64,000 bases of DNA, from positions 229,390 to 293,389 of the forward strand of contig CAVZNA010000004.1 in the NCBI GenBank assembly GCA_963776585.1, written 5' to 3'. The DNA is from an uncultured Actinomycetota bacterium. GTDB lineage: Bacteria; Actinomycetota; Actinomycetes; Actinomycetales; Dermatophilaceae. Position numbers and translations under genes: made by a program. Below are positions 495-64,000 of the stretch, piece by piece. Within the stretch, counting starts at the first letter, position 1; each line of letters starts with the position of its first letter. The notes under the pieces are model-generated. The model was not told the DNA's origin, ran no database searches, and saw only the letters and a program-made list of their open reading frames with translations.

Positions 495-2045
495 ATGGAA
501 CCCAGGACTCCTGCGGGCGACCACCCCGACACCGGTCATCCGCGCGCCTCGACCGGTCGCCACACGCTGGGTTCCCGGGCTGCTGCGGTGCTCGTGTTCG
601 GCTCCTCGGCGGCCGTGCTGGTGGTCGAGCTCGTCGCGCTCCGGCTGCTCGCGCCCTACCTCGGCCTCACCCTGGAGACCAGCACCCTGGTGATCGGGCT
701 GGCGCTCAGCGCGATCGCCGCGGGCTCGTGGCTCGGCGGGCGGGCCGCCGACAGGGTGCCGCCTCGACGCGCCCTCGGGCCGCTGCTGGCGGTCTCGGGT
801 GTCGCCGTCGCGTTGACCCCGATGAGCGTCCGCACCGCCGCCGAGGTGGGGTCCGGGTCGCTGCTGCTGCCGGTGGCTGCGCTGTCGATCGTGGTGCCGG
901 GCGCCCTGCTGTCGGCGGTCACGCCGATGGTGACCAAGCTGCAGCTCACCGACCTGCACGAGACGGGCACCGTGGTGGGGCGGCTGTCCGGCATCGGCAC
1001 CGCAGGGGCGATCGCCGGCACGGTGGTGACCGGCTTCGTCCTGATCTCCACGGTGCCGGTCAGTGTCATCCTGGTCGGCCTCGGCGTGGCCCTGCTCCTG
1101 GCGGCGCTGGTCGTCGACCTGCGGGTGCGCGGTCCCCGGCAGGCGGTCGTGCCGGCACTCGTGGTGGCACTGGCGGGCCTCGGGGCCACCGTGGCGCCCG
1201 GCGGCTGCGATGTCGAGACGACCTACCACTGCGCGCGCGTCGAGGTTGACCCGCAACGTGAGAGTGGCCGGGTGCTGGTGCTCGACACGCTCCGTCACTC
1301 CTACGTGGACCTCGACGACCCGACCTACCTCGAGTTCGCCTACATGCAGGCCATCGCGTCCGCCGTCGACACGGGATGGCCGCCGGGGGAGGCTTTGCGG
1401 GCCTACCACCTGGGGGGCGGCGGGCTGACCTTCCCGCGTTACCTCGCCGAGGTCCGGCCGGGCACGCAGAGCCTGGTCTCCGAGATCGACCCCGGTGTCG
1501 TCGAGGTCGATGTCGACCGCCTGGGACTGCAGACCGGTCCGGACCTGGAGGTGCGTGTCGAGGACGGCCGGCTGGGGCTTCGCGCTCTCGAGGATGACAG
1601 CCGTGACCTCGTCGTCGGCGACGCGTTCGGCGGCGTGAGCGTGCCCTGGCACCTGACGACCCGCGAGGCCGTGGCCGACGTGCGCCGGGTGCTGGTCGAC
1701 GACGGTGTCTACGTCGCCAACCTCATCGACAACGGACCGCTGGCCTTCGCCCGCGCCGAGGTGGCGACGTTCGGTGCCGTGTTCGAGCACGTGGCTGTCG
1801 CGGCCGAGACGGCGACCTTCACCGGCGGACCCGGAGCCGGCGGCAACCTCGTGGCCGTCGCGTCCGACCGCGCCATCGACGTCGAGGCGATGCAGCGGGT
1901 CATGGACGACCGTGGGTTGGAGTGGTCCGTCATCACCGGTGCAGAGCTGGACACGTGGGTGGGTGACGCCCAGGTGCTGACCGACGACTTCGCCCCCGTC
2001 GACCAGCTGCTCACCCCGTATGCCGTGCTCACCCCCGCCGCCTGA
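495..2045 (+). CDS. Fused MFS-like membrane domain / spermidine synthase-like SAM-dependent domain
   Basis: ATG at 495 (MEPRTP). About 7 hydrophobic helices, then YHLGGGG, SEIDP, EDGR, VGDAF and C-terminal LTDDFAP. Confidence 0.85.
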   Translation: MEPRTPAGDHPDTGHPRASTGRHTLGSRAAAVLVFGSSAAVLVVELVALRLLAPYLGLTLETSTLVIGLALSAIAAGSWLGGRAADRVPPRRALGPLLAVSGVAVALTPMSVRTAAEVGSGSLLLPVAALSIVVPGALLSAVTPMVTKLQLTDLHETGTVVGRLSGIGTAGAIAGTVVTGFVLISTVPVSVILVGLGVALLLAALVVDLRVRGPRQAVVPALVVALAGLGATVAPGGCDVETTYHCARVEVDPQRESGRVLVLDTLRHSYVDLDDPTYLEFAYMQAIASAVDTGWPPGEALRAYHLGGGGLTFPRYLAEVRPGTQSLVSEIDPGVVEVDVDRLGLQTGPDLEVRVEDGRLGLRALEDDSRDLVVGDAFGGVSVPWHLTTREAVADVRRVLVDDGVYVANLIDNGPLAFARAEVATFGAVFEHVAVAAETATFTGGPGAGGNLVAVASDRAIDVEAMQRVMDDRGLEWSVITGAELDTWVGDAQVLTDDFAPVDQLLTPYAVLTPAA

Positions 2046-2185
2046 ACCACTCCGCCGCCTGAGTCACTCCCGACCCCCGAAGTGGCACTGTCTCCGGTCC
2101 TTCGGCCGCTCAGCAGCCGGCGCGCTGCCGCTGTCCAGCCACCCACCGGCGCAGCGACTGCGCTCAGGAGGGGTGGCCCGGGGGA

Positions 2186-2351
2186 GGCTACGACACTGCC
2201 CCCGGTGTCGGGGCAGCCTGACCGCCGGACCACGCGGGGCTACGACACTGCCCCCGGTGTCGGGGCAGCCTGACCGCCGACCACGCGGGGCTACGACACT
2301 GCCCCCGGTGTCGGGGCAGCCTGCCCCCGGATGTGGGGCAGTGCCGTAGCC
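2186..2351. repeat. Three tandem 51-52 bp hairpin units plus one inverted degenerate copy (REP/BIME-like)
   Basis: GGCTACGACACTGCCCCCGGTGTCGGGGCAGCCTG starts at 2186, 2238 and 2289; an inverted copy ends ...GGGGCAGTGCCGTAGCC at 2351; lies between convergent genes. Confidence 0.9.
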
Positions 2352-2422
2352 TCTGGCGACCGACCCTGGGGGGATGGATAGCCCCGGGTCCTCGGGACCT
2401 GGAGGACCCGCGGGTTGTCGGC

Positions 2423-3901
2423 TTAGACGCCGGCGGGTGCCTCCGCCTCTGCCGCATGCGCCAGGCCACGGTGCATCGCCAGGAACGAGGCGGTGTGTGC
2501 AGGCCACATGCTGCCCCAGTAGGCCAGGCCGGCCAGCCCCGACGGTGTGAACCGGGCCGTCTGGGTGAGGACAGAGGTGCCGGGCCGCGGACCGGGCTCG
2601 ACCCGGAGGATGAGCAGAGCGTCCCCGGGCAGCCGCATGAGGGAGCGGAGGGCCACCTCCCCACCGTGCTCGTCGCGTCGGACGTAGGCCACGACCCAGG
2701 AGTCGACCTGCATACCGACCTCGAGTGGTCCGGGGCCGCGGTGCCTGACGTGACCTCGACCTCCGACGGCACGGTCGATGAGCCCGCGGGTCTGCCACAG
2801 GATGTCGGGCACGTGCCAGCCGTGGTCACCGCCGAGCTGCTCGACGTGTGACCAGACGACCTTGGCGGGTGCCGCGACCTCCGCCTGGTGGCGGTCGTGG
2901 AAGACCGTGGCTCCGGCCCACTCGGGGTCGGCCGCACTGAGGCGCCCCGGGTGGTCGATGTCGACCTCCGGCCGCAGCGGCCGGGCCTGCGGGCCCTCCT
3001 GCGCCTCGAGGACGGCCGCGTCGAAGCTCACGAACCCGCCCTCGGGGTCCGGCACGTAGTCGGCGATGTCGTGCTCCTTGCAGACGACCTCGTGGATGAG
3101 CGAGCCGACCAGGGGCTTCGCGATGCCCGCGGGCACCGGGGTCACCAGGCCCACCCAGTGGCTGGCCAGTCCGGGTGTCATCACCGGCACCGTGCGCACG
3201 CGACGCTTGACGAGGTGGCTCTGCGCGGCATACCGGCCGATCATCTGGCGGTAGGTGAGCACCTCCTCGGCACCGATGTCGAAGCCCCGGTTCACCTCCG
3301 GCGGGAGGTCGGCGACCCCGACGAGGTAGCGCACGACGTCGGCGATCGCGATGGGCTGGATCCGGGTGTCCAGCCACCGCGGCGCGATCATCACCGGCAG
3401 CCGCTCGGTGAGGTGGCGCAGCATCTCGAAGGAGGCCGAGCCGGCGCCGAGGATGACCGCTGCCCGGAGCACCACGGTCGGCACCGGCGAGGACAGGAAG
3501 ATGTCCTCGACCTCCTTGCGCGAGCCCAGGTGGGTCGAGAGCTCCTCGTCCGGCGGGTAGAGCCCGCTGAGGTAGACGATGCGTCCCACGTGCTGCTCCC
3601 CAGCGATGCGGGCGAAGTGCTGCGCGAGGTTGCGGTCCCGCTCGACCCAGCCGGGCTTGCCGTCCATCGAGTGGATGAAGTAGTAGGCCACGTCGACATC
3701 GGTCATCGCGGCGGCCAGGTCCTCGGCGTCGTCGGCGTTGCCCTCGGAGACCTCGACCCGGTCGGCCCAGTCACGGTCTGCGAGCTTGGAGCCGTCGCGG
3801 GTGAGGACCCGGACGGTCCAGCCCTCACGGAGCAGGGCGGGCACCAGACGGGAGCCGATGTATCCGGTGGCGCCGGTGACCAGTGCGCGTCGTGCGGTCA
3901 T
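2423..3901 (-). CDS. Atypical SDR NAD(P)-binding protein with C-terminal DUF2867-like domain
   Basis: VTGATGYIG Rossmann motif, AYYFIHSM, ASFEMLRHL, C-terminal GLAGLAYW. Start ATG 3901 preceded by GGAG. Confidence 0.85.
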   Translation of the reverse strand: MTARRALVTGATGYIGSRLVPALLREGWTVRVLTRDGSKLADRDWADRVEVSEGNADDAEDLAAAMTDVDVAYYFIHSMDGKPGWVERDRNLAQHFARIAGEQHVGRIVYLSGLYPPDEELSTHLGSRKEVEDIFLSSPVPTVVLRAAVILGAGSASFEMLRHLTERLPVMIAPRWLDTRIQPIAIADVVRYLVGVADLPPEVNRGFDIGAEEVLTYRQMIGRYAAQSHLVKRRVRTVPVMTPGLASHWVGLVTPVPAGIAKPLVGSLIHEVVCKEHDIADYVPDPEGGFVSFDAAVLEAQEGPQARPLRPEVDIDHPGRLSAADPEWAGATVFHDRHQAEVAAPAKVVWSHVEQLGGDHGWHVPDILWQTRGLIDRAVGGRGHVRHRGPGPLEVGMQVDSWVVAYVRRDEHGGEVALRSLMRLPGDALLILRVEPGPRPGTSVLTQTARFTPSGLAGLAYWGSMWPAHTASFLAMHRGLAHAAEAEAPAGV

Positions 3902-6348: not shown

Positions 6349-7809
6349 GTGCGGCTCGTCTTCCCGCACCAGCTCTTCCTCCAGCACCTCGAGGCGCCCC
6401 CGGACACCCGCTTCGTGCTCGTCGAGGACGACCTCTTCTTCCGCCACTACGCCTTCCACGCCCACAAGCTGGTGCTGCACCGTGTCTCGATGCGGCGCTT
6501 CGCAGCCCGGCTGCGTGAGGCCGGCTTCGTCGTCGACGTCGTCGAGACCGACGCACGCGCCTCCAGCGGCGTCCGGCTCACCGTCCTCCTGCACGAGCTG
6601 GCCCCCGAGCGCGTCACGGTCTACGACCTGGTCGACGACTGGCTCGAGCAGCGCACCCGCCGCCTGCTCGACGACGTCGGCTGCCCGCTGGGGGAGGAGG
6701 ACGTGCTGGAGTCGCCCGGCTTCCTCACCACGCGTGCCCAGGTCGCGCAGTGGTCGCGCACCGGCTCGGCCCGGATGCAGCACTTCTACACCTGGCAGCG
6801 CCGACGGCTCGGGATCCTCCTGGACGGTGACGGCCCCCTGGGGGGCCGGTGGTCCTTCGACACGGACAACCGCAGGAAGCTGCCCCGAGGGCACCCGGTG
6901 CCGCCGGTCGCGCCGCCGCGCCGGCATACGGAGGTGGAGGCCGCACTCGCCTGGGTCGGCGAGGAGTTCCCGGACGCTCCGGGCCGGGCGCACACCTTCT
7001 GCTGGCCGACCTCGCACGAGGAGGCCGCCGAGGCCTACGAGACCTTCCTCACCGAGCGCTTCGCGGAGTTCGGGCCCTACGAGGACGCGCTCAGCACGGA
7101 GCATCCCTACCTCTTCCACTCCCTGCTGACGCCTGGGCTCAACATCGGCCTGGTCGACCCGGGGTATGTCGTGCGCCGGGCCCTGGAGGTCGGCGAGGAG
7201 ACCGGCGTGGGGCTGGCCTCGGTCGAGGGCTTCGTGCGGCAGGTCATCGGCTGGCGGGAGTACATGCGGGCCACCTACGTGCTGTGGGGACGGCAGATGC
7301 GCACCGCCAACCACCTGCAGCACACTCGGTCGCTGGACCCGGGCTGGTGGACCGCGCAGACCGGGCTGGAGCCGGTCGACCTGGTCCTCGAGCGGGTGCT
7401 CGAGCACGGCTACGCCCACCACATCGAGCGACTCATGGTGCTCGGCAACGCGATGTGCCTGCTGCGCACCGACCCCGTCGAGGTCCACGAGTGGTTCATG
7501 GAGATGTTCGTCGACGCCTACGACTGGGTGATGGTGCCCAACGTGCACGCCATGAGCCAGTTCGCCGCGGGTGCGGCGATCACCACCAAGCCCTACGTCT
7601 CCGGGAGCAACTACCTTCGGAAGATGTCCGACCTTCCGAAGGGCGACTGGGCCGCCGACTGGGACGGGCTCTACTGGGCCTTCGTCGCCGACCACCGCGA
7701 CGTGTTCGAGACCAACCCACGCTCGCGGATGATGACGCGGGTGTGGGACGGCTTCGACGACGCCACGCGCGCGGCGCACCGTGAGCGCGCTCAGCGATGG
7801 CTGCGGTGA
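6349..7809 (+). CDS. Photolyase-related protein (PhrB/CryPro-type bacterial (6-4) photolyase family)
   Basis: LVFPHQL, HKLVLH, GGRWSFDTDNR, EGFVRQVIGWREY, YAHHIERLM, DAYDWVMVPNV, KPYVSGSNY. Start GTG 6349 or ATG 6298. Confidence 0.9.
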   Translation: MRLVFPHQLFLQHLEAPPDTRFVLVEDDLFFRHYAFHAHKLVLHRVSMRRFAARLREAGFVVDVVETDARASSGVRLTVLLHELAPERVTVYDLVDDWLEQRTRRLLDDVGCPLGEEDVLESPGFLTTRAQVAQWSRTGSARMQHFYTWQRRRLGILLDGDGPLGGRWSFDTDNRRKLPRGHPVPPVAPPRRHTEVEAALAWVGEEFPDAPGRAHTFCWPTSHEEAAEAYETFLTERFAEFGPYEDALSTEHPYLFHSLLTPGLNIGLVDPGYVVRRALEVGEETGVGLASVEGFVRQVIGWREYMRATYVLWGRQMRTANHLQHTRSLDPGWWTAQTGLEPVDLVLERVLEHGYAHHIERLMVLGNAMCLLRTDPVEVHEWFMEMFVDAYDWVMVPNVHAMSQFAAGAAITTKPYVSGSNYLRKMSDLPKGDWAADWDGLYWAFVADHRDVFETNPRSRMMTRVWDGFDDATRAAHRERAQRWLR

Positions 7810-8828: not shown

Positions 8829-9269
8829 TCAGCCCCGGGGCAGGCGCTCCAGGGTCCGGGTGAGGTCGCGGACGGTGTCGCGGGCCAGCTTCTGGAACAC
8901 CAGGAAGAGCAGCGGCTCGGCATACTTCGCCTTGCCCTTCAGGGTGACGTTCGCGTCATACGTCACGCGCACACCGTCGTCGGCCGGCAGCACGTCGATG
9001 GTGTCCACCGACCGTGACCCCTCGTTGGTGCCGACGAAGACGACACCGTTGTCGCGCAGCTCCACCAGCTCGTACTCCAGCTCGGCCTTGACCACGATGA
9101 GCTTGCTGACGTTGTGCCAGCGCGACCCGACCTGGACGGGCCCGGAGTCGAGCCGCGTGCACGAGACCGTGCCGGGGTCCCACTCCGTGGCGTGGGAGAA
9201 GTCCTTCAGGTAGTCGACGACGGTCGCCTGGTCGGCGCGGACGGTGAACTGACGGGTGACATGCACCAT
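8829..9269 (-). CDS. SRPBCC (polyketide cyclase/START-like) protein
   Basis: VVDYLKDFSHATEWDPGT, GPVQVGSRW; AGGAG RBS. Confidence 0.85.
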   Translation of the reverse strand: MVHVTRQFTVRADQATVVDYLKDFSHATEWDPGTVSCTRLDSGPVQVGSRWHNVSKLIVVKAELEYELVELRDNGVVFVGTNEGSRSVDTIDVLPADDGVRVTYDANVTLKGKAKYAEPLLFLVFQKLARDTVRDLTRTLERLPRG

Positions 9270-9403
9270 GGGCGAGATCTCCTGTGCTGGTCGGGCGGGT
9301 GACGGGCGGGTGCGCCCTCACCTCGACGGTAGGTCAGGTCAACACACGCCGCCTCTCCGGTATGCCGTGAGCCCGCTCCCGCGGTGCCGTCTAGCCTGGG
9401 ACG

Positions 9404-10774
9404 ATGCCGACGACCGTGCTCTGGCTCAGACGTGACCTGCGGCTCCACGACCTGCCCGCCCTCGGTGCCGCCTGCGAGGCGGCCGCCGGAGGCCGGGTGC
9501 TGCCGCTCTTCGTGCTCGACCCGACCCTGCTGGAAGCCTCCCCGGTCCGCACGCACTGCCTGCTCGACGCCCTCGAGGGGCTGCGGCGGTCCTACGACGG
9601 GGCGCTGGTGCTGCGCACCGGCCACCCGGAGCAGGTCGTGCCCGCCGTGGTGCGCGAGGCCGGCGCCGCAGGCGTGCACATCTCCGCCGAGTCCACCCCG
9701 TTCGGGCGGCGCCGGGACGAGCGGGTGCGCCGGGCCCTGCCCGAGGACGTGCCCCTGGTGGCCACCGGGAGCGCGTATGCGGTGGGGCCGGGCACGGTCC
9801 GCAACGGCTCGGGCGCCCCCTACCGGGTGTTCACGCCGTTCTCCAAGGCGTGGCGGGCGCACGGCTGGCCGGAGCCCGCGCAGGTGCCCGACGGTCTGCG
9901 CTGGCACCGCCAGGTCGCGTCGGAGGATCTGCCGGACCGCCCGCCGACCGACCCCGAGGCCGACCTGCCGGACGTCGGGGAGGAGGCCGCGCTGCGCCGC
10001 TGGGAGGAGTTCCTCGACGCCGGTGTCACGGCATACGACCAGGAGCGTGACCGACCCGACCACGACGGCACGAGCCGCCTGTCCGTCCAGCTCAAGTACG
10101 GGACGATCCACCCGCGCACCCTCTTGGCCGACCTGCACGGCCATCGGGGCAAGGGGGTGCACACCTATGTCACCGAGCTGGCCTGGCGGGAGTTCTACGC
10201 CGACGTGCTGTGGCACCACCCGGCCTCGGCGTGGGCGGACCTGCGGCCGGCGCTGACCGGCATGGCCTACGACGACCCGGACCGCGACGAGACCGTGGCC
10301 GAGGCCGTCGAGGCGTGGCGACAGGGGCGCACCGGCTATCCCTTCGTCGACGCGGGGATGCGTCAGCTGCTGGCCGAAGGGTGGATGCACAACCGGGTGC
10401 GGATGGTCACCGCGAGCTTCCTCGTCAAGCACCTGCACGTGTGGTGGCCGGTCGGTGCACGGCACTTCCTCCGGCATCTGGCCGACGGCGACATCGCCTC
10501 CAACAACCATGGCTGGCAGTGGGTCGCCGGCACCGGCACCGACGCCGCCCCCTACTTCCGGGTGTTCAACCCGGTCACCCAGGGGCAGCGGTTCGACCCC
10601 GACGGTGACTACATCCGACGCTACGTGCCCGAGCTGAGGCACCTGACGGGCAAGGCGGTCCACGAGCCGTGGACGGCCCTCGACGGCCATGCGCAGGGTT
10701 ATCCCGAACCCGTGGTGGAGCACAGGCAGGCCCGCGAGGAGGCCCTGAGGCGCTACGAGCAGGCCCGCACGTAG
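9404..10774 (+). CDS. phr: Deoxyribodipyrimidine (CPD) photolyase
   Basis: WLRRDLRLHD, TSRLSVQL, ELAWREFY, GRTGYPFVDAGMRQL, WMHNRVRM, SNNHGWQW, RVFNP. Confidence 0.95.
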   Translation: MPTTVLWLRRDLRLHDLPALGAACEAAAGGRVLPLFVLDPTLLEASPVRTHCLLDALEGLRRSYDGALVLRTGHPEQVVPAVVREAGAAGVHISAESTPFGRRRDERVRRALPEDVPLVATGSAYAVGPGTVRNGSGAPYRVFTPFSKAWRAHGWPEPAQVPDGLRWHRQVASEDLPDRPPTDPEADLPDVGEEAALRRWEEFLDAGVTAYDQERDRPDHDGTSRLSVQLKYGTIHPRTLLADLHGHRGKGVHTYVTELAWREFYADVLWHHPASAWADLRPALTGMAYDDPDRDETVAEAVEAWRQGRTGYPFVDAGMRQLLAEGWMHNRVRMVTASFLVKHLHVWWPVGARHFLRHLADGDIASNNHGWQWVAGTGTDAAPYFRVFNPVTQGQRFDPDGDYIRRYVPELRHLTGKAVHEPWTALDGHAQGYPEPVVEHRQAREEALRRYEQART

Positions 10775-12132: not shown

Positions 12133-12420
12133 GCGCTCATCTTCCACCCGGCGCCGGTCCATCGAGCCGCGACCATGACGGACTTGACCCGGCGAAGAGT
12201 CAACCTAGCCGATTCCTGACGAAGTCTTTGCCCACGGCATACACAACGTCGCTCACCATGGAAGGAGGATGTTTCCGCAGGCCAGGCGGCATGAGGTCCT
12301 GAGTTCAGCCGCGCGTGACCGGCCCGCAGAGGGGTCCTAAGCCCTGTTTCGCGCAGCCCGCAGAGACGAGCCCGGCATCCGCCGTCGCCCGCAGGTGGGC
12401 AGTGACCCACGAGGAGCGAC

Positions 12421-15400
12421 ATGACACATCAGAGAAGGCACCGCCTGCCGGCGGTGCTCGCCGTGGCTGCCCTGGCTTCGGCCGGAGCGGTCACCGGGGC
12501 CACCGGTGCCCCGGCCCAGCCCGGCGGCGGCGGTGACGTCGACCGCTGGTCCGACCTACGTCTCGACACCCCGATGACCGGCCAGGCCCCGCCGGAGGTC
12601 GACCAAGGACTGGTCGGCACCGAGGGCGACGTGAGGGTGAGCATCCGGCTCACCGAGCCCTCGCTCGCGCTCGGCGGTGACGCCGCGACGCTGCAGGCCG
12701 AGCAGGCCGCGGTGGTCGACGCGGTCGAGGCGGCCGGTGGCACGGTCGACGGCACGGTCGACACCGTCCTCAACGCGGTCTTCGCCACGGTCGACGGCGC
12801 GGAGGTCGACGGGCTCGTCGACACCGGGGTGATCCTGTCCGTCAAGGAGGTCGCCGACTACGAGCTCGACCTGAGCGGGACGGTGCCCTACATCGGCGCG
12901 ACCGCCGTCCAGGAGTCGGGCAACACCGGTGAGGGCATCACGGTGGCCGTGCTCGACTCCGGCATCGACTACACGCACGTCGGGCTCGGTGGTGGCGGCA
13001 CCCTGGCCGACTACGACGCGGCCTACGCCGACCCGGAGGACCGAGACGGGCTCTTCCCGACCGACAAGGTCGTCGAGGGCTTCGACTTCGTCGGGGAGAC
13101 CTGGCCCAACGGCCCGCGCACCGAGGACGACGACCCCATCGACTTCGAGGGTCACGGCACCCACGTCGCCGACATCATCGCCGGTGACCAGGGGGTCGCG
13201 CCCGGGGCCAGCCTCGTCGGCGTCAAGGTCTGCTCGGCGGTCTCGCCGTCCTGCAACGGCGTGGCGCTCATCCTCGGCATCGAGTATGCCGTGGACCAGA
13301 AGGTCGACATCATCAACATGTCGCTCGGCTCCAACTACGGCCAGGCCTTCGACGACGACCTCGCCGCCGCGACCGACGGTGCCACCGAGGAGGGCATCCT
13401 CACGGTCGCCTCGGCGGGCAACGGCTCGAACAAGCCCTACGTCACCGGCACCCCGGCCGCTGCCCCGACCGCGCTCAGCGTCGCTCAGACGCAGGTGCCC
13501 GGCGCGGTCCTGCCGCAGCTGACCGTGCAGGACGCGAGCGGCGAGACCGCACTCGTCATCAACGGCGTGTTCCAGGAGTGGTCCGCCGAGCCCGAGGGTG
13601 TCCTCACGGGCGACCTCGTCTACGGCGACGGCGACGGCGGCAACCTGCTCGGCTGCAACGCGTTCGACGAGGAGTTCGCCCCCGGCACGATCGTGTTGGT
13701 CGACCGAGGGGCCTGCTCGTTCACCCAGAAGATCGCCACGATCGCCAACGCCGGCGGCGTCGCCGGCATCATCGGGCTGGTCACCCCGGAGGCCCCGTTC
13801 AGCGGTGCCTACGACCCGGTGGCGTGCGACCCCGACAACGACGGTTCGCTGGACTGCCAGGAGATCCCCGGCTACATGATCAGCCAGGCCGACAGCGACG
13901 TCCTCAAGGAGGGCATCCCCGGAGGCCTGAGCGTCAGCATCGACCCGACCGACGGCCTGGCGCTCGTCGGCACCGTCGTCGGCTCGTCCTCGCGCGGTCC
14001 GTCGATGAACTTCAACAACGCCATCAAGCCCGAGATCGGCGCCCCCGGTGCCTCGGTCTCCGCGGTGGCGGGCACGGGTGACGACACCGCTCCGTTCGGC
14101 GGCACCTCCGGCGCCGCTCCGATGGTGGCCGGTTCGGCCGCTCTGGTGCTCGCCGATGACCCGGGGCTCATCCCGCAGCAGGTCAAGGCCAAGCTGGTCA
14201 ACACCGCCGAGACCGACATCGACACCGAGCCCGGCGCGGGCCTGGCGCCGATCACCCGCATCGGTGGCGGCGAGGTGCGGGCCGACCGCGCCGTCGCGGC
14301 CGACGGCGCGGCGTGGGAGACCGAGGGGGTCACCCCGACCCTCTCCTTCGGTTTCGCCGACGTGCCGGACACCTGGACGGCCACCAAGACGGTGACCGTG
14401 GAAAACTACGGGGCCTCCGCGGCCTCGTACTCGATCGCTGCGTCCTTCCGCTATGCGGATGACGAGGCCACCGGCGCGGTCGCCCCGAGCCTGTCGACCA
14501 GTGAGCTGACGGTGCCTGCCGGCGGGTCGGCCACGTTCGACGTCACCCTGACTGTCGACGGCAGCAAGCTGCGCGAGTGGACCGCCAACTCCGGTGCCGC
14601 CGGCGCCGACCCGGCATGGCTCGACCTGCTGGAGTATGACGGCTATGTCACCCTCACCGGTGACGGCGCGTCCGACCTGCACCTGCCGTGGCACGTGCTG
14701 CCGCGCAAGGCCGCGGACATCGACGTCACCCAGGGTCGCGGACAGGCGTTCACGCTGAGCAACGAGGCCGCCAACCCGGCGTCGCTGGAGATCTACAACC
14801 TGCTCGCGACCAGCGAGGACCTCCCTGAGGGGCCGCGCGGCGGTCAGTCCCCGACGCCGGACTTCCGGGCCGCGGGTGTGGGCTTCTACGAGGTGCCGAC
14901 GACCTTCTGCGAGAGTGGCCTGCTGACCAGCTTCGCGGTCAACACCTGGGAGCGGCAGACCCACGCGGTCGCCCCGGCTCTCTTCGAGTTCGACATCGAC
15001 ACGAACAACGACGGGACGCCGGACTACGCCGTCTTCAACGTCGACCAGTCGTTCCTCGGTGGCGCCAACACCCTCGGCGACGGCCGCAACCTCGTCGTGG
15101 CCCAGGATCTGGCGACCGGTTCGATCTCGGTGTTCTTCTACACCGACCACGAGACCAACAGCGCCAACACGGTGCTGAACGTCTGTGGTGAGCAGGTCGG
15201 TCTCGACGCCAAGACCATCAAGAAGCGCCAGGTGGGCATCGCGTTCGCAGCGGACATCTACTTCGGTGGCCCCGGCGACAGCGTCGAGCTCGACTTCGGC
15301 GCGGGCAAGACGCAGCCCCCGCTGCGGGTCGGGAACACCCCGGTGCAGTTCCTGCAGCTGGACGCTGGTGAGAGCGTCAACGCCCGGCTGTTCGCCAACA

Positions 15401-16917: not shown

Positions 16918-18138
16918 ATGGCGACTCCCACACACCTTTCCCCTGGCACTCCTGTGTCCGCCACCGACCCACGGGTGGCGATGTTCGCGGGCTTCGCCCT
17001 GATCCTGGGCGGCTTCGGCATCGGCGTGGCCGAGTTCGTGACCATGGGGCTGCTGCCCCAGATCGCCGAGGGCACGGGCGTGGACATCCCCACCGCCGGT
17101 CACACGATCTCCGCGTATGCCGTGGGGGTCGTCATCGGCGCGCCGCTCATCGCAGCGTGGGGGGCGAAGTTCCCGCGGCGGGCCCTGCTCATCGGCCTGA
17201 TGGCGGTGTTCGCCCTGGGCAACCTGCTCGCAGCGCTCGCCCCCGGCTACGGCACGCTGCTGGCGGCACGCTTCCTGTCCGGGCTGCCGCACGGCGCCTT
17301 CCTCGGCCTGGCCGCGCTCGTGGCCATTACCCTGGCCCCGCCCGGCCGGGCCGGCCGGGCCGTGGGCACCGTCATGCTCGGCATCCCGATCGCCACCGTC
17401 GTGGGGGTCCCCATCGCGACCTGGGTCGGCCAGGCGCTCGGCTGGCGCACCGCCTACGTCGCCGTGGCCGTCATCGGCCTGCTCACCGTGCTGCTCATCC
17501 GCCTCTGGGTGCCCGACACCCCCGGCGACGCCGACCAGTCCTGGCGCCGCGAGCTGCGCGCCTTCGCCAGCCTGCAGGTGTGGCTGACGATGGCGGTGGG
17601 GGCGATCGGCTTCGGTGGCATGTTCGCGATGTACTCCTACATCGCCCCGACCGTCACCGAGGTCACCGGCCTGTCCGAGGGCTGGGTGCCGGTCTTCCTC
17701 TTCGCGTTCGGCGTCGGCTCGATCGCCGGCACGGTCATCGGTGGCCGGCTGGCCGACTGGTCCGTGCTGCGGGCACTGGTGCTCAGCGGGGCCGTGATGG
17801 CGGCCCTGCTGCTGACCTTCAGCGTCACCTCGCAGTGGACGGTCCCGGCCCTCGTCACGATCTTCGCCGTGTCCGCCACGACGGGGACCTTCGTCATCGG
17901 GCTGCAGCTGCGCCTGATGAGCGTCGCAGGTCCGGCCAGGACCCTCGGGGCGGCGATGAACCACTCCTCGCTCAACGCTGCCAACGCGCTCGGCGCGTGG
18001 CTCGGGGGCCTCGTCATCGCGGCGGGCTACGGCTACACCGCCCCCAGCATCGTCGGTGCCGTCCTCGCCCTCGGCGGCCTCGCCGTGCTCGGCATCTCGC
18101 TGCTGGTGCACGTGCGAGACACCCGGCTCGCGACCTGA
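16918..18138 (+). CDS. MFS transporter (DHA1, AraJ/YdhP-like)
   Basis: GVAEFVTMGLLP, ARFLSGLPHGAF, GGRLADW, NAANALGAWLGG; 12-TM pattern. Confidence 0.9.
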   Translation: MATPTHLSPGTPVSATDPRVAMFAGFALILGGFGIGVAEFVTMGLLPQIAEGTGVDIPTAGHTISAYAVGVVIGAPLIAAWGAKFPRRALLIGLMAVFALGNLLAALAPGYGTLLAARFLSGLPHGAFLGLAALVAITLAPPGRAGRAVGTVMLGIPIATVVGVPIATWVGQALGWRTAYVAVAVIGLLTVLLIRLWVPDTPGDADQSWRRELRAFASLQVWLTMAVGAIGFGGMFAMYSYIAPTVTEVTGLSEGWVPVFLFAFGVGSIAGTVIGGRLADWSVLRALVLSGAVMAALLLTFSVTSQWTVPALVTIFAVSATTGTFVIGLQLRLMSVAGPARTLGAAMNHSSLNAANALGAWLGGLVIAAGYGYTAPSIVGAVLALGGLAVLGISLLVHVRDTRLAT

Positions 18139-42643: not shown

Positions 42644-42731
42644 AAGGGTGAGCGTATGCCGTGCCTCGCCAGGCTCCCAGGCTGCCCGGCCGGGACAGCC
42701 GCCTGGCAACGGAACCGTGGAGGATGGTGGC

Positions 42732-47572: not shown

Positions 47573-48471
47573 CCGACGTGCACGTCCAGGAGCAGATGCT
47601 GGACCTGCTGGGCGCCCGGGTGCACTGGGCCGACTTCGGCGGCCCCGCAGACCCGGAGGCGCTGTGCGTCATGGTGCACGGGATGGGTGGGGCGACCGTC
47701 AACTGGGAGGCACTGGCCGCTCATCTGACCGACCGTTTCCGCTGCGTCGCCCTCGACCTCGTCGGGTTCGGCCGCACCCATCCGGGGGACCGACGCGGTG
47801 GCGTGCTCGACAACACCGACCTGCTCGGCGCGTTCGTGCAGCGGGTGCGGCCGGCAGGGCTGCCGTTGCTGCTCGCGGGCAACTCGATGGGTGGGCTGAT
47901 CACGGCAAGGTATGCCGTCACGCGCCCCGACGACCTCGCCGGCGTGGTGCTGCTGGACCCGGCGCTGCCGCCGCCCCGGCCGGTGCCCGGCCCTGGCGCG
48001 CTCGCCGCGGTCGGTGTCTACGGCATACCGGCGGTGGGCACGGCGTTCGCCCGGGCCCGGCGGCAGCTGCGCACCCCCGAGCAGTCGGTGCTCGACACCC
48101 TGCGGCTGTGCACCACGGACCCGTCCGGGATCGGGTCCGACGTGATCGACCGGCACGTGGGTCTGGCGAAGGTGCGCCAGGACCACCCTGAGCTCGACCG
48201 CTACTACGCCGACGCGGCACGTTCTCTCTTCGGGCTGCTGGCCCGCCGGGAGCAGGCCGATGCGGTGTATGCGGACATCCCGGCCCCCGTGCTGCTGGTC
48301 CACGGCACCCACGACCGGCTGGTGCCCTTTGCGTCCGCCCTGCGCACGGCCCGGCTCAACCCCGGCTGGCGTTTCCGGCCGGTCGGTGGGCGCGGGCATC
48401 TGCCGATGCTGGAGGAGCCGCGCTGGCTCGCGGCGCAGGTGCGGTCGTGGTGGGACGACGTCCGTGCCTGA
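47569..48471 (+). CDS. Alpha/beta fold hydrolase
   Basis: VHGMGG, DLVGFG, GNSMGG, HGTHDRLVP, GHLPMLE; ATGA overlap. Confidence 0.92.
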   Translation: MTDVHVQEQMLDLLGARVHWADFGGPADPEALCVMVHGMGGATVNWEALAAHLTDRFRCVALDLVGFGRTHPGDRRGGVLDNTDLLGAFVQRVRPAGLPLLLAGNSMGGLITARYAVTRPDDLAGVVLLDPALPPPRPVPGPGALAAVGVYGIPAVGTAFARARRQLRTPEQSVLDTLRLCTTDPSGIGSDVIDRHVGLAKVRQDHPELDRYYADAARSLFGLLARREQADAVYADIPAPVLLVHGTHDRLVPFASALRTARLNPGWRFRPVGGRGHLPMLEEPRWLAAQVRSWWDDVRA

Positions 48472-50648: not shown

Positions 50649-51635
50649 CTACGGGGTGCTGACGTCGAGGAGGATCTTGCCGATGTGGCCGCCGTCCTCC
50701 ATCGCCTGGTGCGCCGCTGCCGCGTCGGCGAGCGGGAAGCGCGCGTGGACCACCGGACGCACCCGACCGTCGGCGAGCATCGGCCACAGCTGCTCCCGGA
50801 CCGCGCCGACGATGGCGGCCTTGTCGTCGGCGGCACGGGAGCGCAGCGACGTGGCGATCACGCGGCCGCGCAGCGTCAGCAGCCGGCCGAGGTTGAGCTC
50901 GGCCTTCACCCCGCCCTGGAGCCCGATGACGACCAACCGGCCCCCGGTGGCCAGGGTGCGGAGGTTGCGGTCCAGATACTTCGCCCCGATGACGTCGAGG
51001 ATGACGTCGGCGCCGTGACCGTCGGTGCTGTCGTGGACCTCCTCGACGAAGTCCTGCCGGCGGTAGTCGACCAGGATCTGCGCGCCGAGGTCACGGCAAG
51101 CCTCGAGCTTGGCGGGGCTGCCGGCGGTCACGGCGACCCGGGCACCCAGGGCCCGGGCCACCTGGATCGCCATGGTGCCGATGCCGCTCGACCCTCCGTG
51201 CAGCAGCACCACCTCCCCGGCCGACAGTCCGGCCTCCAGGACGAGGTTGCTCCAGACGGTGCAGGCGACCTCCGGCAGCGCCGCGGCGTCGGCGACAGCG
51301 ACCCCCTCGGGCACCGGCAGCAGCTGCCCGGCCGGCACGGCGACCTGCTCGGCATACCCCCCGCCCTCCAGCAGAGCGCACACCGGGTCGCCGACCGCCC
51401 AGCCCTCGACTCCGTCGCCGAGGGCGGCGATGTGCCCGCTGACCTCGAGCCCGGGCAGCTCGCTGGCGCCTGGTGGCGGCGGGTAGTGCCCCAGCCGCTG
51501 CAGCACGTCGGCGCGGTTGACCCCGGCCGTGACGACGTCGACGAGCACCTGGCCGGGGGCGGCTTCCGGAGCGGGCACGTCGGCGAGCACGAGGGCCTCG
51601 GGTCCGCCGGGGGAGTCGATCGTGATGGCACGCAT
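50649..51635 (-). CDS. NAD(P)H-quinone oxidoreductase (PIG3-like MDR)
   Basis: GVNRADVLQR, PGLEVSG, GGGYAE, LPEVACTVWSN, HGGSSGIG, HIGKILL. Confidence 0.93.
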   Translation of the reverse strand: MRAITIDSPGGPEALVLADVPAPEAAPGQVLVDVVTAGVNRADVLQRLGHYPPPPGASELPGLEVSGHIAALGDGVEGWAVGDPVCALLEGGGYAEQVAVPAGQLLPVPEGVAVADAAALPEVACTVWSNLVLEAGLSAGEVVLLHGGSSGIGTMAIQVARALGARVAVTAGSPAKLEACRDLGAQILVDYRRQDFVEEVHDSTDGHGADVILDVIGAKYLDRNLRTLATGGRLVVIGLQGGVKAELNLGRLLTLRGRVIATSLRSRAADDKAAIVGAVREQLWPMLADGRVRPVVHARFPLADAAAAHQAMEDGGHIGKILLDVSTP

Positions 51636-53308: not shown

Positions 53309-54109
53309 ATGCAGCGCACCGTCACCGCCCGGATCACGTCCACCGTCACCAGCCCCTGCGAGATCTCGCTGAGCGTGGTGGTGGCGCAGTCGACCTCACC
53401 CGTGCAGGAGCAGCTGTTCGTCACCGTCGACGGGGTCGACGTGCGGGTGCAGGAGGTCACCGGGCCCGAGGGTGCCCGGCTGCATCTGCTGCCGCACGTG
53501 CCGACCGGTGAGCTCCTCGTCGACTACCACGCCACGGTGCCGGGGGGCGGTGCTGCCGGCGAGCTCACGGCATACGACCGGATCCGCTTCCTGCGACCGA
53601 GCCGGTATGCCGACGTGGACCGCCTCGAGAGCACGGCGCGAGCGCTCTTCGGTGGGCAGGACGGTGGCGCCCTGGTCACGGCGGTGGCCGACTACGTCGC
53701 CGACCAGACCGCCTACGTGGTGGGCTCCTCCCGGGTGACCGACGGTGCCTCGGACACCTACCTGGCGCGCACCGGGGTGTGCCGCGACTTCGCGCACCTG
53801 ACCATCGCACTGCTGCGCGCCCGTGGGGTGCCCGCCCGGATGGTCAGCGCCTACGCACCCGGGCTGGACCCGATGGACTTCCACGCCGTGGTCGAGGCCC
53901 ACGCCGAGGGTGCCTGGCACGTGGTCGACCCGACCCGGCTCGCGCCCCGGCACTCCCTGGTGCGCATCGGCACCGGTGCCGACGCCGCCGACACCGCCTT
54001 CATGACCACGCACACCGGCGCCATGCAGTTCGGCGCGCTCGAGGTCACCGCGACCACGGCGGGCAGCCTGCCGGTGGACGACCACACCGGCCTGGTCCGC
54101 CTCGCCTGA
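53309..54109 (+). CDS. Transglutaminase-like protein
   Basis: LRPSRY, GVCRDFAH (Cys), DFHAVVE (His), VDPT (Asp). Confidence 0.92.
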   Translation: MQRTVTARITSTVTSPCEISLSVVVAQSTSPVQEQLFVTVDGVDVRVQEVTGPEGARLHLLPHVPTGELLVDYHATVPGGGAAGELTAYDRIRFLRPSRYADVDRLESTARALFGGQDGGALVTAVADYVADQTAYVVGSSRVTDGASDTYLARTGVCRDFAHLTIALLRARGVPARMVSAYAPGLDPMDFHAVVEAHAEGAWHVVDPTRLAPRHSLVRIGTGADAADTAFMTTHTGAMQFGALEVTATTAGSLPVDDHTGLVRLA

Positions 54110-55892: not shown

Positions 55893-57484
55893 GGGGTGAC
55901 CTCCTGTTCGGCCTGCTGCTGTTGCTGCTGCTCCTGTTCGGCCTGGGTCGCGGTGACCTGCGACTCCTGCAGGCGCACCTGCGGCTCGCTGAGCTGCTCC
56001 ACCGGCCGGGGGCGGGCGGCGATGCGGCGCCGTCGTCCGTCGCCGGCCAGCACCCAGGTGTCCTTCGAGCCGCCGCCCCGGCTGGAGTTGACGATCAGCT
56101 CACCCTCGCCCAGGGCGACGCGGGTGAGGCCGCCGGGGAGCACCCATACCCGGTTGCCGTCGTTGATCGCGAAGGGGCGCAGGTCGACGTGGCGGGGCTG
56201 CATGGTGTCCCCGATCATCGTCGGCACCGTCGACAGCTGCACCACCGGCTGCGCGATCCACCCGCGCGGGGCTCGTTGCACCGTGCGCCGCAGCTCCTCC
56301 AGCTCGGCCGGACTGGCCTGGGGGCCGATCACGATGCCCTTGCCGCCGGCGCCGTCGACCGGCTTGACCACCAGCTCGTGCAGCCGGTCCATGACCTCCT
56401 CGCGGTGCGTGGGGTCCTCCAGGCGCCAGGTGTCGACGTTGGGCAGGATGGGCTCCTCGCCGAGGTAGTAACGGATGATCTCGGGCAGGTAGGTGTACAT
56501 CAGCTTGTCGTCGGCCACCCCGTTGCCGACCGCGTTGGCGATCGTGACGTGGCCGGCCCGGGCGGCGTTGAGCAGGCCCGGGCAGCCCAGCGCGGAGTCG
56601 GAGCGGAAGTGCACCGGGTCGAGGAAGTCGTCGTCGACCCGGCGGTAGATGACGTGCACGGGGTGCAGACCATGCGTGGTGCGGATCATCACCCGGCCGG
56701 CCTGGGCCACCAGGTCACGGCCTTCCACCAGCTGGCAGCCCATCATCCGGGCCAGCAGCGAGTGCTCGAAGTAGGCCGAGTTGTAGGGACCCGGGGTGAG
56801 CACGACGACGGTCGGGTCGGAGACACCGCTGGGGGCCGCGGCGCGCAGGGCCGCGAGCAGCCGCTGCGGGTAGGCGGCCACCGGCCGGATGCGATGGGTG
56901 CTGACCACCTCGGGCAGGGTCTGGCTGAGCGCGCGGCGGTTGGTGAGCACGTAGGAGACACCCGAGGGGATGCGCACGTTGTCCTCGAGCACCCGGAAGT
57001 CGCCGTTGCCGTCCCGGATGAGGTCGATGCCGGAGACGTGGATGCGCACCCCGTTGAGCGGGGTGATCCCGAAGGCCGCCCGGTGGTAGTGGCTGGAGGA
57101 GGTGACGACGTGGCGCGGCAGGATGTTGTCGGCAAAGATCTCGCCGGCACCGTAGATGTCGTCGAGCAGCCGCTCCAGGGCCTGCACCCGCTGGCCGACG
57201 CCGGCCTCCACGTGGGCCCACGACTCGGCGTCGATGATGCGGGGCATGATGTCGAGCGGGAAGGGCCGCTCCTCGCCGCCGATGTCGAACGTCACACCTT
57301 GGTCGCGGTAGGTCGAGGAGAGATAGTCCGAGCGTGACTGCAGGTCCTCCGAGCCCACCTCCTCGACGGCCTCGGCGAGGTGCCGGTATGCCGAGCGCAC
57401 CGTCTCGTCGGGCTCGGCCTCCCAGGCGAACATCTCGTCGTGCTTGTCCGGCGCGAGCGGGTAGTCCTCGAAGAGTCCGGGCAT
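55886..57484 (-). CDS. Circularly permuted type 2 ATP-grasp protein
   Basis: GIDLIR, VLEDNVRIPSGVSY, TPGPYNSAYFEH, IYRRVDDDFLDP, GNGVADDK, HVDLRPF, NSSRGGGSKDTW. Confidence 0.95.
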   Translation of the reverse strand: MPGLFEDYPLAPDKHDEMFAWEAEPDETVRSAYRHLAEAVEEVGSEDLQSRSDYLSSTYRDQGVTFDIGGEERPFPLDIMPRIIDAESWAHVEAGVGQRVQALERLLDDIYGAGEIFADNILPRHVVTSSSHYHRAAFGITPLNGVRIHVSGIDLIRDGNGDFRVLEDNVRIPSGVSYVLTNRRALSQTLPEVVSTHRIRPVAAYPQRLLAALRAAAPSGVSDPTVVVLTPGPYNSAYFEHSLLARMMGCQLVEGRDLVAQAGRVMIRTTHGLHPVHVIYRRVDDDFLDPVHFRSDSALGCPGLLNAARAGHVTIANAVGNGVADDKLMYTYLPEIIRYYLGEEPILPNVDTWRLEDPTHREEVMDRLHELVVKPVDGAGGKGIVIGPQASPAELEELRRTVQRAPRGWIAQPVVQLSTVPTMIGDTMQPRHVDLRPFAINDGNRVWVLPGGLTRVALGEGELIVNSSRGGGSKDTWVLAGDGRRRRIAARPRPVEQLSEPQVRLQESQVTATQAEQEQQQQQQAEQEVTPC

Positions 57485-61611: not shown

Positions 61612-62376
61612 TCAGCGCGGCGGTCGTCGCCCCAGCCGTCGGGAGACCTCGGCGGCACACGTCTGCACCGCAGCCACGAGGTCGGCCGGCGGGTGCGGGT
61701 CCTCGGAGATCGGGAAGGTCGCGGCCACCCCCGCCACGGGGTGGTCGGCATGGTCCAGCACGGCGGCGGCCACGGAGGCCAGCCCGGGGGTGACCGAGCC
61801 GACCTCCAGCGCGTAGCCCCGGGTGCGGGTCTGCACCAGCAGTGGACGGAGCGTGGTCAGCGATGTCGGTCCGGTGCCGTGCCGCTGCACGAAGGCGTCG
61901 GCGGAGGGGAACAGGGCCCGCACCTGCGCCGCGGGCAGGGCCGCGAGGATGGCCAGCCCGCTGGCCGTCAACGAGGCCGGCAGCCGGACCCCGACATCGC
62001 TGACCAGTGACGGCCGTCCGGACACCCGCTCCTCGATCACGTAGACGACGTCGCGCCCGTGCAGCACCACCAGGTGCGCGTTGTGGCCGGTGCGGTCGGC
62101 GAGCCGGGTGAGCAGCGGCCGCGCGATGCGCTGCAGCGCGCCCTGCCGCGAGTAGGCGGACCCGAGCTCGAAGGCCGCGACCCCCAGCCCGTACCGCCGC
62201 TCCTCGGGCAGGTGCACGACGAAGCCGCGGTCCACCAGCACGCCGAGCAGCCGGTATGCCGTGGAGCGCGGGATCCCCAGCTCGCGGGCGATCGTGGCCG
62301 CCGGCAGCGGGCCGGCGTGCCGGGAGAGCAGCAGCAGCAGCGCCAGCGCATGGTCGGCGGCTGGAGCGGCACTCAT
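61612..62376 (-). CDS. IclR family regulator
   Basis: HTH IARELGIPRSTAYRLL, RYGLG, VGVRLPASLTASG, RGYA, ASVAAAV. Confidence 0.93.
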   Translation of the reverse strand: MSAAPAADHALALLLLLSRHAGPLPAATIARELGIPRSTAYRLLGVLVDRGFVVHLPEERRYGLGVAAFELGSAYSRQGALQRIARPLLTRLADRTGHNAHLVVLHGRDVVYVIEERVSGRPSLVSDVGVRLPASLTASGLAILAALPAAQVRALFPSADAFVQRHGTGPTSLTTLRPLLVQTRTRGYALEVGSVTPGLASVAAAVLDHADHPVAGVAATFPISEDPHPPADLVAAVQTCAAEVSRRLGRRPPR

Positions 62377-62442: not shown

Positions 62443-62955
62443 ATGGATCAGCGCGAGGTCGACGCCTTCTGGGAGGACGCCCGGGTGCGGGCCGGTCTCA
62501 ACCCTGCCGGGGTCTACCTCGGCCGCAACGTCGAGGAGACGCTGCAGCCGCCGGCGTGGTCGTTCGGGTCCGACCCGGTGCACGCCGACCGCATGGTCGA
62601 GCTGGTGCTGGCCGGCACCAAGACGGCCATGGCCAGCGCGCGCTCGGAGTACGACGCCGACGGCCAGGACCTGCCCGAGCCCGGTGACCTGTCCATCGTC
62701 CTGGACGGCGCGGGGCGTCCCCGGGCTCTCATCCGCACCACCGACGTGCGGGTCGTGGCCTTCGGGGACGTCGACGCCGAGCACGCCCGCGCCGAGGGTG
62801 AGGGCGACGGGTCGCTGCAGCACTGGCGTGCCGCGCACCGCGACCTGCTCGGTCGCAGCGCTGCGGTGGACGAACCCGGTGAGGTCGTGCTGGAGCGTTT
62901 CCGGGTGCTGGTGGGGCACGGCCGCGAGGCGCACGACTCCGTCACCGCAGGGTGA
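62443..62955 (+). CDS. ASCH domain protein
   Basis: WSFG, VLAGTKTA, AEGEGDGSL..WR..H, VVLERF. Confidence 0.9.
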   Translation: MDQREVDAFWEDARVRAGLNPAGVYLGRNVEETLQPPAWSFGSDPVHADRMVELVLAGTKTAMASARSEYDADGQDLPEPGDLSIVLDGAGRPRALIRTTDVRVVAFGDVDAEHARAEGEGDGSLQHWRAAHRDLLGRSAAVDEPGEVVLERFRVLVGHGREAHDSVTAG

Positions 62956-63001
62956 CCGCAGCAGGGCACACCTCGGTCGTCCCCACGGCGGGGCGGAGCC
63001 G

Positions 63002-63868
63002 TCACTCGTCCGGCTGGACCGGGAGCATCTGCTCGTAGGTGAGCTCGCTCGTCGTGCCGTCGGCCAGCTCGACAGTGGCGCTGAGCGCCCCGTGGTCCAT
63101 GTCGGCCCCGGGGTCGACGTCGGCCGGCCACCAGGCGGCCCAGGAGCCGCCGGACAGCGTTGCGGTGACGTCCTGGCCGTCGGGGGCGTGCACCGTGACG
63201 GCGGTGACGTCGGTGCCTGCTCGGCCGGTGATGGAGGAGTGGCTGCCGGCGGGCCCCGACCCCGTGAACCCGCCGTAGCTGTCGACCCTGTCCGCAGCGA
63301 GCGCGGGCAGGTCGTCGACGACGCCAAGGCTCCCAGCGCCGTTGTCGTAGCCGCCGAACAGGCCGAGCAGCCCCGGCGCGTCGTGCAGCAGGCACTCTCC
63401 GACGGCCCCGCCGTCGACGGCGACGACGGTGAAGGTCCACTCCCCGCGGCGCTCGGCGAGCACGAGCTCCGCGGCCGTGAGCTCAGCAGCGGTGGGCAAC
63501 CCTTCTGCATCGCTGGGCGCTGGTCCGCCAGGCACGCTGAGGAAGTCCACACACTCCCGGAGGGCGGCCTCCTGGTCCTCGATCGGCACACCCGTAGGCA
63601 CGGCGCTCCACGACGCGTAGGCGGTGTCGCTGCCCAGCAGGTCGGGGCCGACGACGAGCAGCCCCGTCACACCGGCGGCGACAGGTAGCAGCCAGGCCAG
63701 GCGGCGCCGAGGGGTCCGTGCCGGCCGGGTCGGGGTCGGCGACCCGGTGGGTGCCGCGAGGATCCGGTCGAGGTCGGCTGCGGCGCGTTCGGCGTCACCA
63801 CCTGTTCCGCGGGCGGGGTCCATCGCGCGCAGGAGGTCGTCGAGGTCGCGGTCGTCCAGGCGGGTCAT
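63002..63868 (-). CDS. Putative membrane-anchored anti-sigma factor
   Basis: ATGA-coupled to a sigma gene; short N-terminal DLDDLLRAMDP helix, one TM helix, extracellular domain with two Cys. Confidence 0.65.
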   Translation of the reverse strand: MTRLDDRDLDDLLRAMDPARGTGGDAERAAADLDRILAAPTGSPTPTRPARTPRRRLAWLLPVAAGVTGLLVVGPDLLGSDTAYASWSAVPTGVPIEDQEAALRECVDFLSVPGGPAPSDAEGLPTAAELTAAELVLAERRGEWTFTVVAVDGGAVGECLLHDAPGLLGLFGGYDNGAGSLGVVDDLPALAADRVDSYGGFTGSGPAGSHSSITGRAGTDVTAVTVHAPDGQDVTATLSGGSWAAWWPADVDPGADMDHGALSATVELADGTTSELTYEQMLPVQPDE

Positions 63869-64000
63869 GAGGTGGCTCCAGTGGCCGAGGGTGTGGTGGC
63901 GACCCGGTGGGCGGTCGCGGGGGCGGCGTCGAGGTGACGACGCAGGGCGCGGCGTGCGCGCGAGAGGCGCAGGCGGTATGCCGTGGGAGTGATCCCCAGC
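63865..64000 (-). CDS. ECF RNA polymerase sigma factor, 3' end only
   Basis: Manual translation LGITPTAYRLRLSRARRALRRHL resembles sigma region 4.2; stop at 63865-63867. Not in the ORF track. Confidence 0.8.
   Translation of the reverse strand, partial: LGITPTAYRLRLSRARRALRRHLDAAPATAHRVATTPSATGATS

Follow-up and report, generated by a model that had tools for sequence, protein, structure and literature searches.

The stretch of DNA analysed here (the window, 64,000 nucleotides, C4:229390-293389 of the source genome G000) belongs to an Ornithinimicrobium-group member of the Dermatophilaceae. It harbors an rRNA operon at 36215-41622 and protein-coding genes on both strands, among which the octamer GTATGCCG is scattered. 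An earlier note on this DNA had listed 32 copies of this word and estimated that about two would occur by chance. Every listed position proved to be an exact match (18 on the + strand, 14 on the - strand), compared with a mean of 1.34 and a maximum of 4 copies in 100 dinucleotide shuffles of the window. According to gene calls made with our own caller (3,123 genes in G000), 27 copies are located within open reading frames (ORFs) and five are intergenic (9360, 12235, 24164, 24207 and 42654), and a scan of the window found no copy in the rRNA operon; both counts agree with the note. The codon frames that it cited are also correct (CGG CAT AC at 6922 and 19184, GTA TGC CGC at 41835, GGC ATA CCG at 48021). 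The copies of GTATGCCG in the window are as follows.

2018..2025, + strand, read as CCG TAT GCC GTG (PYAV)
3226..3233, - strand, CGG TAT GCC GCG in a gene on the - strand
6922..6929, - strand, antisense reading CGG CAT ACG (RHT)
8918..8925, - strand, AAG TAT GCC GAG
9360..9367, + strand, intergenic
10029..10036, - strand, antisense reading ACG GCA TAC (TAY)
12235..12242, - strand, intergenic
13284..13291, + strand, GAG TAT GCC GTG
17115..17122, + strand, GCG TAT GCC GTG
18403..18410, + strand, CTG TAT GCC GTG
19184..19191, - strand, antisense reading CGG CAT ACC (RHT)
22249..22256, + strand, GTG TAT GCC GGG
22576..22583, + strand, CGG TAT GCC GAG
24164..24171, - strand, intergenic by our own gene calls
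24207..24214, - strand, intergenic by our own gene calls
28082..28089, + strand, antisense reading GGC ATA C (rare ATA Ile)
32282..32289, + strand, antisense reading TCG GCA TAC
34269..34276, - strand, antisense reading GCG GCA TAC
35466..35473, + strand, CTG TAT GCC GTG
41835..41842, - strand, GTA TGC CGC (rare GTA Val), the first copy past the motif-free rRNA operon
42654..42661, + strand, intergenic
43629..43636, + strand, ACG TAT GCC GTG
45114..45121, - strand, GAG TAT GCC GCG
47437..47444, + strand, CTG TAT GCC GCG
47910..47917, + strand, AGG TAT GCC GTC
48021..48028, - strand, antisense reading GGC ATA CCG (rare ATA Ile)
51350..51357, - strand, GGG TAT GCC GAG
53568..53575, - strand, antisense reading ACG GCA TAC
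53605..53612, + strand, CGG TAT GCC GAC, in the same gene as the copy at 53568
57386..57393, + strand, antisense reading TCG GCA TAC
62254..62261, + strand, antisense reading ACG GCA TAC
63976..63983, + strand, within a - strand ORF that extends beyond the window end

The earlier note had proposed a signal at the DNA level, which the data support, while allowing that the enrichment might be limited to the window or disappear once codon usage was preserved. It spans the genome and the family, and it outlasts codon-preserving shuffles. The whole genome contains 1,144 copies (590 on the +, 554 on the - strand), which is 12.6 times the expectation of an order-3 Markov model, and GTATGCCG is its most over-represented 8-mer. 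The flanks show a weak extension to gGTATGCCGtg and, in the G000 flank profile, no AT-rich 3' tracts. Coding copies number 958, compared with 126 after synonymous shuffling within each gene and 134 after shuffling of codons given the next amino acid (five shuffles each; the following expectations are given in the same order). Of four one-off variants that had been noted as recurring, three are enriched in coding DNA, namely GTATGTCG (215 vs. 46/33), GTATGCGG (187 vs. 88/83) and GTATGACG (68 vs. 37/20), whereas CTATGCCG is not enriched as a word (98 vs. 95/272). The word GTACGCCG is depleted (92 vs. 381/136). At silent sites of G000 each position tested is biased toward the GTATGCCG consensus. 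Odds ratios at positions 1-4 are mostly 26-54 (range 10-155) relative to controls matched for two neighbours on each side, in sense and antisense orientation and for transitions as well as transversions; positions 6 and 7 tolerate change more. The pattern is that of a driven or selected binding site and differs from that of a mutation hotspot. The word accounts for 57 of the 155 ATA and 27 of the 414 GTA codons of the genome, and 953 of 3,329 synonymous opportunities for it are filled.

The orientation of coding copies shows a sense excess of 678:280, which is due to what proteins allow, and no replichore skew was found on contigs C1, C2 and C5, which have a net positive GC skew (402 + and 366 -). 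Likewise, no periodicity was detected up to 60 kb in a six-contig genome, with bins at 0.92-1.16 of expectation. The word has also left an imprint on the proteome: the ratio of observed to expected counts (O/E) in canonical genomes is 1.35-1.98 for the tripeptides YA[VADEG] and 1.46-2.85 for [TAPS]AY, and 1.04 and 1.07, respectively, where no word was detected. As a separate observation, the 4-mers AATC and ATTC are 3-6 times rarer in the coding DNA of G000, of its relative G297 and of loci with GGAT dialects than in motif-free relatives.

Turnover was assessed in 230 genes compared with G297 (84% amino-acid identity, four-fold sites 59% identical, which is near saturation). Fifty GTATGCCG sites are common to both genomes, 41 occur in G000 only and 40 in G297 only. 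The words GTACGCCG (2 of 6), CTATGCCG (0 of 5) and GTATGCGG (1 of 13) are kept less often, whereas words made of common codons are kept as often as GTATGCCG, such as CTACGCCG with 16 of 28. Lowered divergence beside the sites gave no signal in this comparison, which has low power. Together with the silent-site data, this suggests that GTAT(G) is the essential core of a recognition site, which would be held in dynamic equilibrium by a force that resembles selection and amounts to about ln 35 per site.

The word is restricted to one family. All 24 congeners are enriched for it, and 28 loci from the genomes that come closest by a window protein, mostly Ornithinimicrobium and Serinicoccus with some assigned no further than family, order or phylum, contain 0.07-1.11 copies per kb, compared with 0-1 copies in about 20 kb at five loci of Propionibacteriaceae, Gordonia and Rhodococcus. 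In an even draw of 250 Dermatophilaceae genomes, whose copy classes were counted by eye with a cut-off of 350 copies, 147 reach that number, with a maximum of about 5,400, and 103 fall below, mostly consistently by genus. Outside the family, none of 188 genomes from 20 families of the order exceeds 174 copies, and 120 genomes drawn from the phylum have at most about 60 copies per Mb, which holds without four unpublished genomes. Genomes assembled as a single contig carry the word as well. No description of it was found in the literature, of which most subscription papers lay outside coverage. GTATGCCG is a family-restricted, strand-symmetric recognition word with a constant advantage per site.

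Contrary to an initial assumption, not all low-count genera are without the system, since many of them use another spelling that recurs across separate loci. Dialects were typed in 62 Dermatophilaceae genomes, of which 18-80 kb each were sampled. The word GGATGCCG occurs 70 times in G097 (11 expected), 47 times in G076 (7 expected) and 26 times in G041 (9 expected). In G052 GAATGCCG reaches 39 copies against 2 expected, in G048 CGATGCGG reaches 52 against 10, and in G065 GTATGCGG serves as the dialect with 11 against 1. A further dialect, GTACGNCG, characterizes G105, G073, G102 and G078 and is weaker in G243, G049 and G069. Two genomes contain GTATGACG alongside the canonical word (G043 21 vs. 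2, G077 18 vs. 1). The letters A3, G5 and G8 are constant across all dialects. Low-count genomes are nested among motif-rich ones in a six-gene FastTree phylogeny of 61 genomes, which is midpoint-rooted and weak in its deep branches, and GGAT and GTAC spellings sit on separate branches. In 80 kb of G080 and in 40 kb each of G050, G056, G072, G090, G093, G094 and G246 no word was detected; a GC-rich dialect could hide in the background there. Three further genomes showed no convincing word and only a faint GGAT excess. The top word in the 80 kb of G080 is the palindrome GACGCGTC, with 62 strand-counts vs. 23.

Some intergenic copies form hairpins. In G000 a perfect inverted partner lies within 45 nt of 16 of the 180 intergenic copies, compared with 6 of 964 coding copies, and four such stems fold with about -35 kcal/mol near stop codons. 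At the loci sampled from relatives, all eight canonical head-to-head pairs are intergenic. Genomes with the GGATGCCG dialect form such pairs from their own spelling, three of four being intergenic, and in some inverted intergenic pairs the arms mismatch yet both obey the dialect. A small intergenic hairpin family was observed at C2:73244, C4:38780 and C6:21218 of G000, in which the motif forms the outer arms around a common inner stem. This longer pattern, which is terminator-like or resembles repetitive extragenic palindromes (REP), fits only 10 GTATGCCG copies. A longer conserved body around the copies, as is typical for REP or small mobile repeats, was not found, and the flanks are heterogeneous.

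Recently acquired DNA is poor in the word. The five largest motif-free gaps of G000 measure 22-42 kb and have a lowered GC content of 67-69%. The largest gaps listed include islands rich in insertion sequences and integrases, for sugar catabolism and for surface polysaccharides, as judged from gene names read from the sequence; gaps of 15-17 kb occur in core regions too. Tetrasphaera phage TJE1, the one phage considered, contains two GTATGCCG copies in 49 kb (the motif status of its host is unchecked). Viral contigs scanned for close motif pairs, in sets of at least 120 stretches (80 with flanks), 38 and 29, yielded no motif-rich high-GC phage, a weak negative because the share of Dermatophilaceae phages in the collection is unknown. 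Plasmid searches listed no plasmid of Dermatophilaceae. Within the window, an RND-like transporter gene at 24107-28979 is present in several pieces (28065-28979, 26638-27609, 25784-26455), and leuS at C1:218272-221203 is likewise spread over two frames; each is either a pseudogene or an assembly error.

To our knowledge, sequence-tagged uptake of self-DNA has been described only in Neisseriaceae, with the DNA uptake sequence (DUS), and in Pasteurellaceae, with the uptake signal sequence (USS). The highly iterated palindrome HIP1 (GCGATCGC) is the other well-known hyper-abundant octamer. GTATGCCG is a real, family-wide word and belongs to this class. It resembles DUS, whose reader is ComP, in its thousands of non-palindromic copies on both strands, its restriction to a family, its dialects around an invariant core, its copies within genes, its inverted pairs in intergenic hairpins and its scarcity in foreign DNA. 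AT-DUS shares the letters ATGCCGT with it, an overlap that looks coincidental. In contrast to DUS, which comprise 10-12 bp, GTATGCCG comprises 8-11 bp and its host is a monoderm with Tad/Flp pili. About 9% of its intergenic copies lie in hairpins, and its density per kb is similar in genes and spacers. Furthermore, it has been lost repeatedly, its dialects are convergent across the tree, and no reader was found for it. With USS it shares a short core with tolerant flanks, an imprint at the protein level and decay in some lineages, but it differs in sequence, in the lack of AT-rich 3' tracts, in phylum and in pilus type. As far as the accessible parts of these reports go, Neisseriaceae use eight DUS dialects around a short core (PMC3630211) and the predicted USS reader is ComN (PMC12616744). 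Cyanobacterial HIP1 is likewise an octamer with about one copy per gene and lineage-specific replacements, according to the portions available (PMC4390886; PMC5861425), whereas GTATGCCG is not palindromic, has no cognate methylases that were found and shows no periodicity to 60 kb. Chi sites and the FtsK-orienting polar sequences (KOPS) are over-represented non-palindromic octamers as well. An identity with Chi or KOPS was rejected, as GTATGCCG has no leading-strand or replichore skew and the recognition helix of the FtsK gamma domain is invariant across dialects.

The sequence data point to an uptake-sequence-like tag driven by biased transformation via Tad, ComEA and ComEC, a reading that has about an even chance of being correct. 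A protein of this pathway would favour fragments bearing GTATGCCG, and repeated uptake and recombination would drive the word into every position that proteins tolerate. An altered specificity of the reader would yield a dialect, and without the bias the word would fade to background level. The traits shared with DUS and USS include copy number on both strands, family restriction with dialects, the override of codon choice with its mark on the proteome, scarcity in recently acquired DNA and in the one phage, and a host with a transformation gene set. Among the three functions that the earlier note had offered, an uptake sequence is the putative best fit, whereas a modification site is unlikely, as no methylase was found in two motif-rich genomes. 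GTATGCCG behaves most like a DUS but was not classed as one, since that class is defined by uptake itself and no reader was found.

The predicted transformation set of G000 consists of comEC, dprA, yraN, comM, a ComEA-like gene and two tad clusters, and in Micrococcus luteus both of the tad clusters are necessary for transformation, according to the available part of that study (PMC4322843). The tadA gene of the tad-1 cluster (tadA1) is broken or missing in 6 of 54 genomes with the motif or a dialect, made up of 4 of 40 canonical genomes (six with the inclusion of two partial matches that lie on short contigs) and 2 of 14 dialect genomes, compared with 11 of 26 low-motif genomes (no dialect, weak dialect or untyped), an association that is inflated by kinship. 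In G080 tadA1 is interrupted by a 33-kb element with serine-recombinase-like and primase-helicase-like ORFs (L260:6547-7248, L279:8460-10446). Matches to tadA1 stop near residue 140-167 in five genomes (G080, G046, G051, G123 and G101), at a site that resembles a hotspot for integration into a gene of the competence pilus. A serine recombinase element also occupies the 5' part of comEC in G106 (L058:9387-12437), in a locus without a comEA match. In transformable species mobile elements target competence genes, as stated in the accessible text of one report (PMC12378983). The elements in tadA1 and comEC thus lend indirect support to competence in Dermatophilaceae.

Several observations weigh against uptake. 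The transformation genes occur in nearly the whole family. An intact or nearly intact comEC is present in each of 80 genomes, whether or not they contain the word, and neither comEA nor comEC of G000 contains a GTATGCCG copy. In the tad-2 cluster of G000, tadC and flp are split apart by 14 kb of inserted DNA. Seven of the eleven low-motif tadA1 defects lie within, or in congeners of, one clade, and tadA1 is absent from G060, which has 717 copies per Mb, and from G048 with its strong dialect. No report of competence in Dermatophilaceae was found, although no search was aimed at it. A reader that tracks the dialects was not found among about 25 candidate genes; homologues of ComP and ComN were not searched. 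Occupancy barely changes with how far away the next copy lies: O/E is 0.86-1.12 at 51 bp to 6.4 kb, 0.5 under 50 bp and 0.59 beyond 6.4 kb. About half of the DUS/USS copies are located in predicted terminators, as far as the available portion of a preprint states (bioRxiv 10.1101/2025.10.24.684340), and GTATGCCG hairpins are far rarer than this share. Finally, canonical genomes avoid GTAC even at places that look like the word on neither strand. The G:C ratio before TAC is 0.10-0.21 vs. 0.59, compared with 0.57-0.76 vs. 0.68 in the control before TTC, and no matching rise in GTAT was seen in canonical genomes. Uptake gives no account of this avoidance.

The tests for covariation with dialect comprised 16-60 genomes each; several were judged by eye and some gene names were read from the sequence. 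No dialect-tracking residue was detected in ComEA, ComEC, the tad-1 and tad-2 pilins and ATPases, the tad-linked DEAH helicase, YraN, ComM and DprA, nor in NucS, FtsK-gamma, DegV, LeuS, LysR, LexA, the sirtuin, NrdR and NrdJ, and what few columns were flagged tended to follow phylogeny. Most of the transformation set of G000 is present in motif-free relatives too. The tad-2 insert (C2:183499-197906) contains glycosyltransferase-, kinase- and ABC-like genes.

A possible, though doubtful, alternative is that the word is bound by a chromosomal protein peculiar to the family, either a nucleoid organiser or a protector of self-DNA paired with a defence nuclease, where each site would bring a small benefit and selection would fill all tolerated positions. 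The uniform advantage per site on both strands, the near independence from neighbouring copies, the lack of the word in recent islands and its scarcity in phage TJE1, and the missing link between comEC presence and the word are consistent with such a protein, for which the arm-mismatched but dialect-true inverted pairs could be dimer sites. However, the absence of periodicity up to 60 kb does not favour it, and an essential architectural role is hard to square with a word that lineages across the tree have repeatedly lost altogether or respelled. It is unlikely that the word is functionless and that repair or gene conversion resolves mismatches toward it, as in an Elhai-type ratchet without methylation. 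Such a ratchet would fit a density-independent drive per site with balanced gain and loss. Vsr causes CTAG depletion, which the avoidance of GTAC outside the motif context resembles, but Vsr was detected in only one of five motif-rich genomes. The similar odds ratios at all positions and for both mismatch classes do not easily result from one mismatch nuclease, no lowered divergence was seen beside the sites (at low power), and NucS does not track the dialects. The nucS gene lacks its N-terminal half in G126 (L281), the densest genome sampled; loss of nucS as an explanation for this densest genus was dropped, as the gene is full length in four of five congeners of G126 and in two frames in the fifth.

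A mark on donor DNA for host-encoded conjugation-like transfer, either distributive or by a TraB-like FtsK translocase reading 8-mers, would leave the same genomic signature as uptake but is very unlikely. TraB reads 8-bp repeats, and a protein with FHA and FtsK parts adjoins tad-1 in G080. An FtsK-family gene is likewise located beside tad-1 in M. luteus, according to the accessible part of the source (PMC8467076). No gamma domain was found by Pfam in the tad-linked FtsK protein, however, and 21 of 21 genomes, covering all dialects, have an identical recognition helix in the gamma domain of their housekeeping FtsK. A HIP1-like site linked to methylation, or a decay product of methylated GTACGC as the earlier note had considered, is extremely improbable in spite of the depletion of GTACGCCG and the low GTAC of canonical genomes. 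Neither G000 (88% complete) nor G075 (99% complete) yielded a methylase of the C5, N6/N4, D12 or type I kind, GTATGCCG is no palindrome, and it recruits ATA, GTA and CAT codons at other positions. Single C-to-T decay was rejected, since all eight positions are driven, by transitions and transversions alike, and 50 of 91 sites are kept in the relative. The Illumina P7 adapter contains the same octamer, a mere coincidence of sequence, so that an adapter remnant was considered and rejected as having a negligible probability. Just one of the 1,144 copies lies in the 13-nt context of the adapter, which argues against contamination, and the copies lie in intact frames, are common to the relative, occur in single-contig genomes and have dialects.

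Returning to uptake, GTATGCCG might tentatively represent a third, independently evolved family of uptake sequences, which would be the first in a monoderm and the first with Tad/Flp pili, with a reader unrelated to ComP and ComN and with convergent dialects acting as species barriers across the Dermatophilaceae; the chance of this fuller proposal is put at slightly below even. A further case with hundreds of genomes, dialects and repeated losses provides natural replicates for the origin of such words by drive or by selection. If the word is a chromosomal site, it points to a new sequence-specific protein that shaped whole proteomes. If it serves uptake, a family that includes wastewater phosphate removers would possess an unrecognised natural competence, and addition of the word to donor DNA could aid the genetic tractability of these bacteria.

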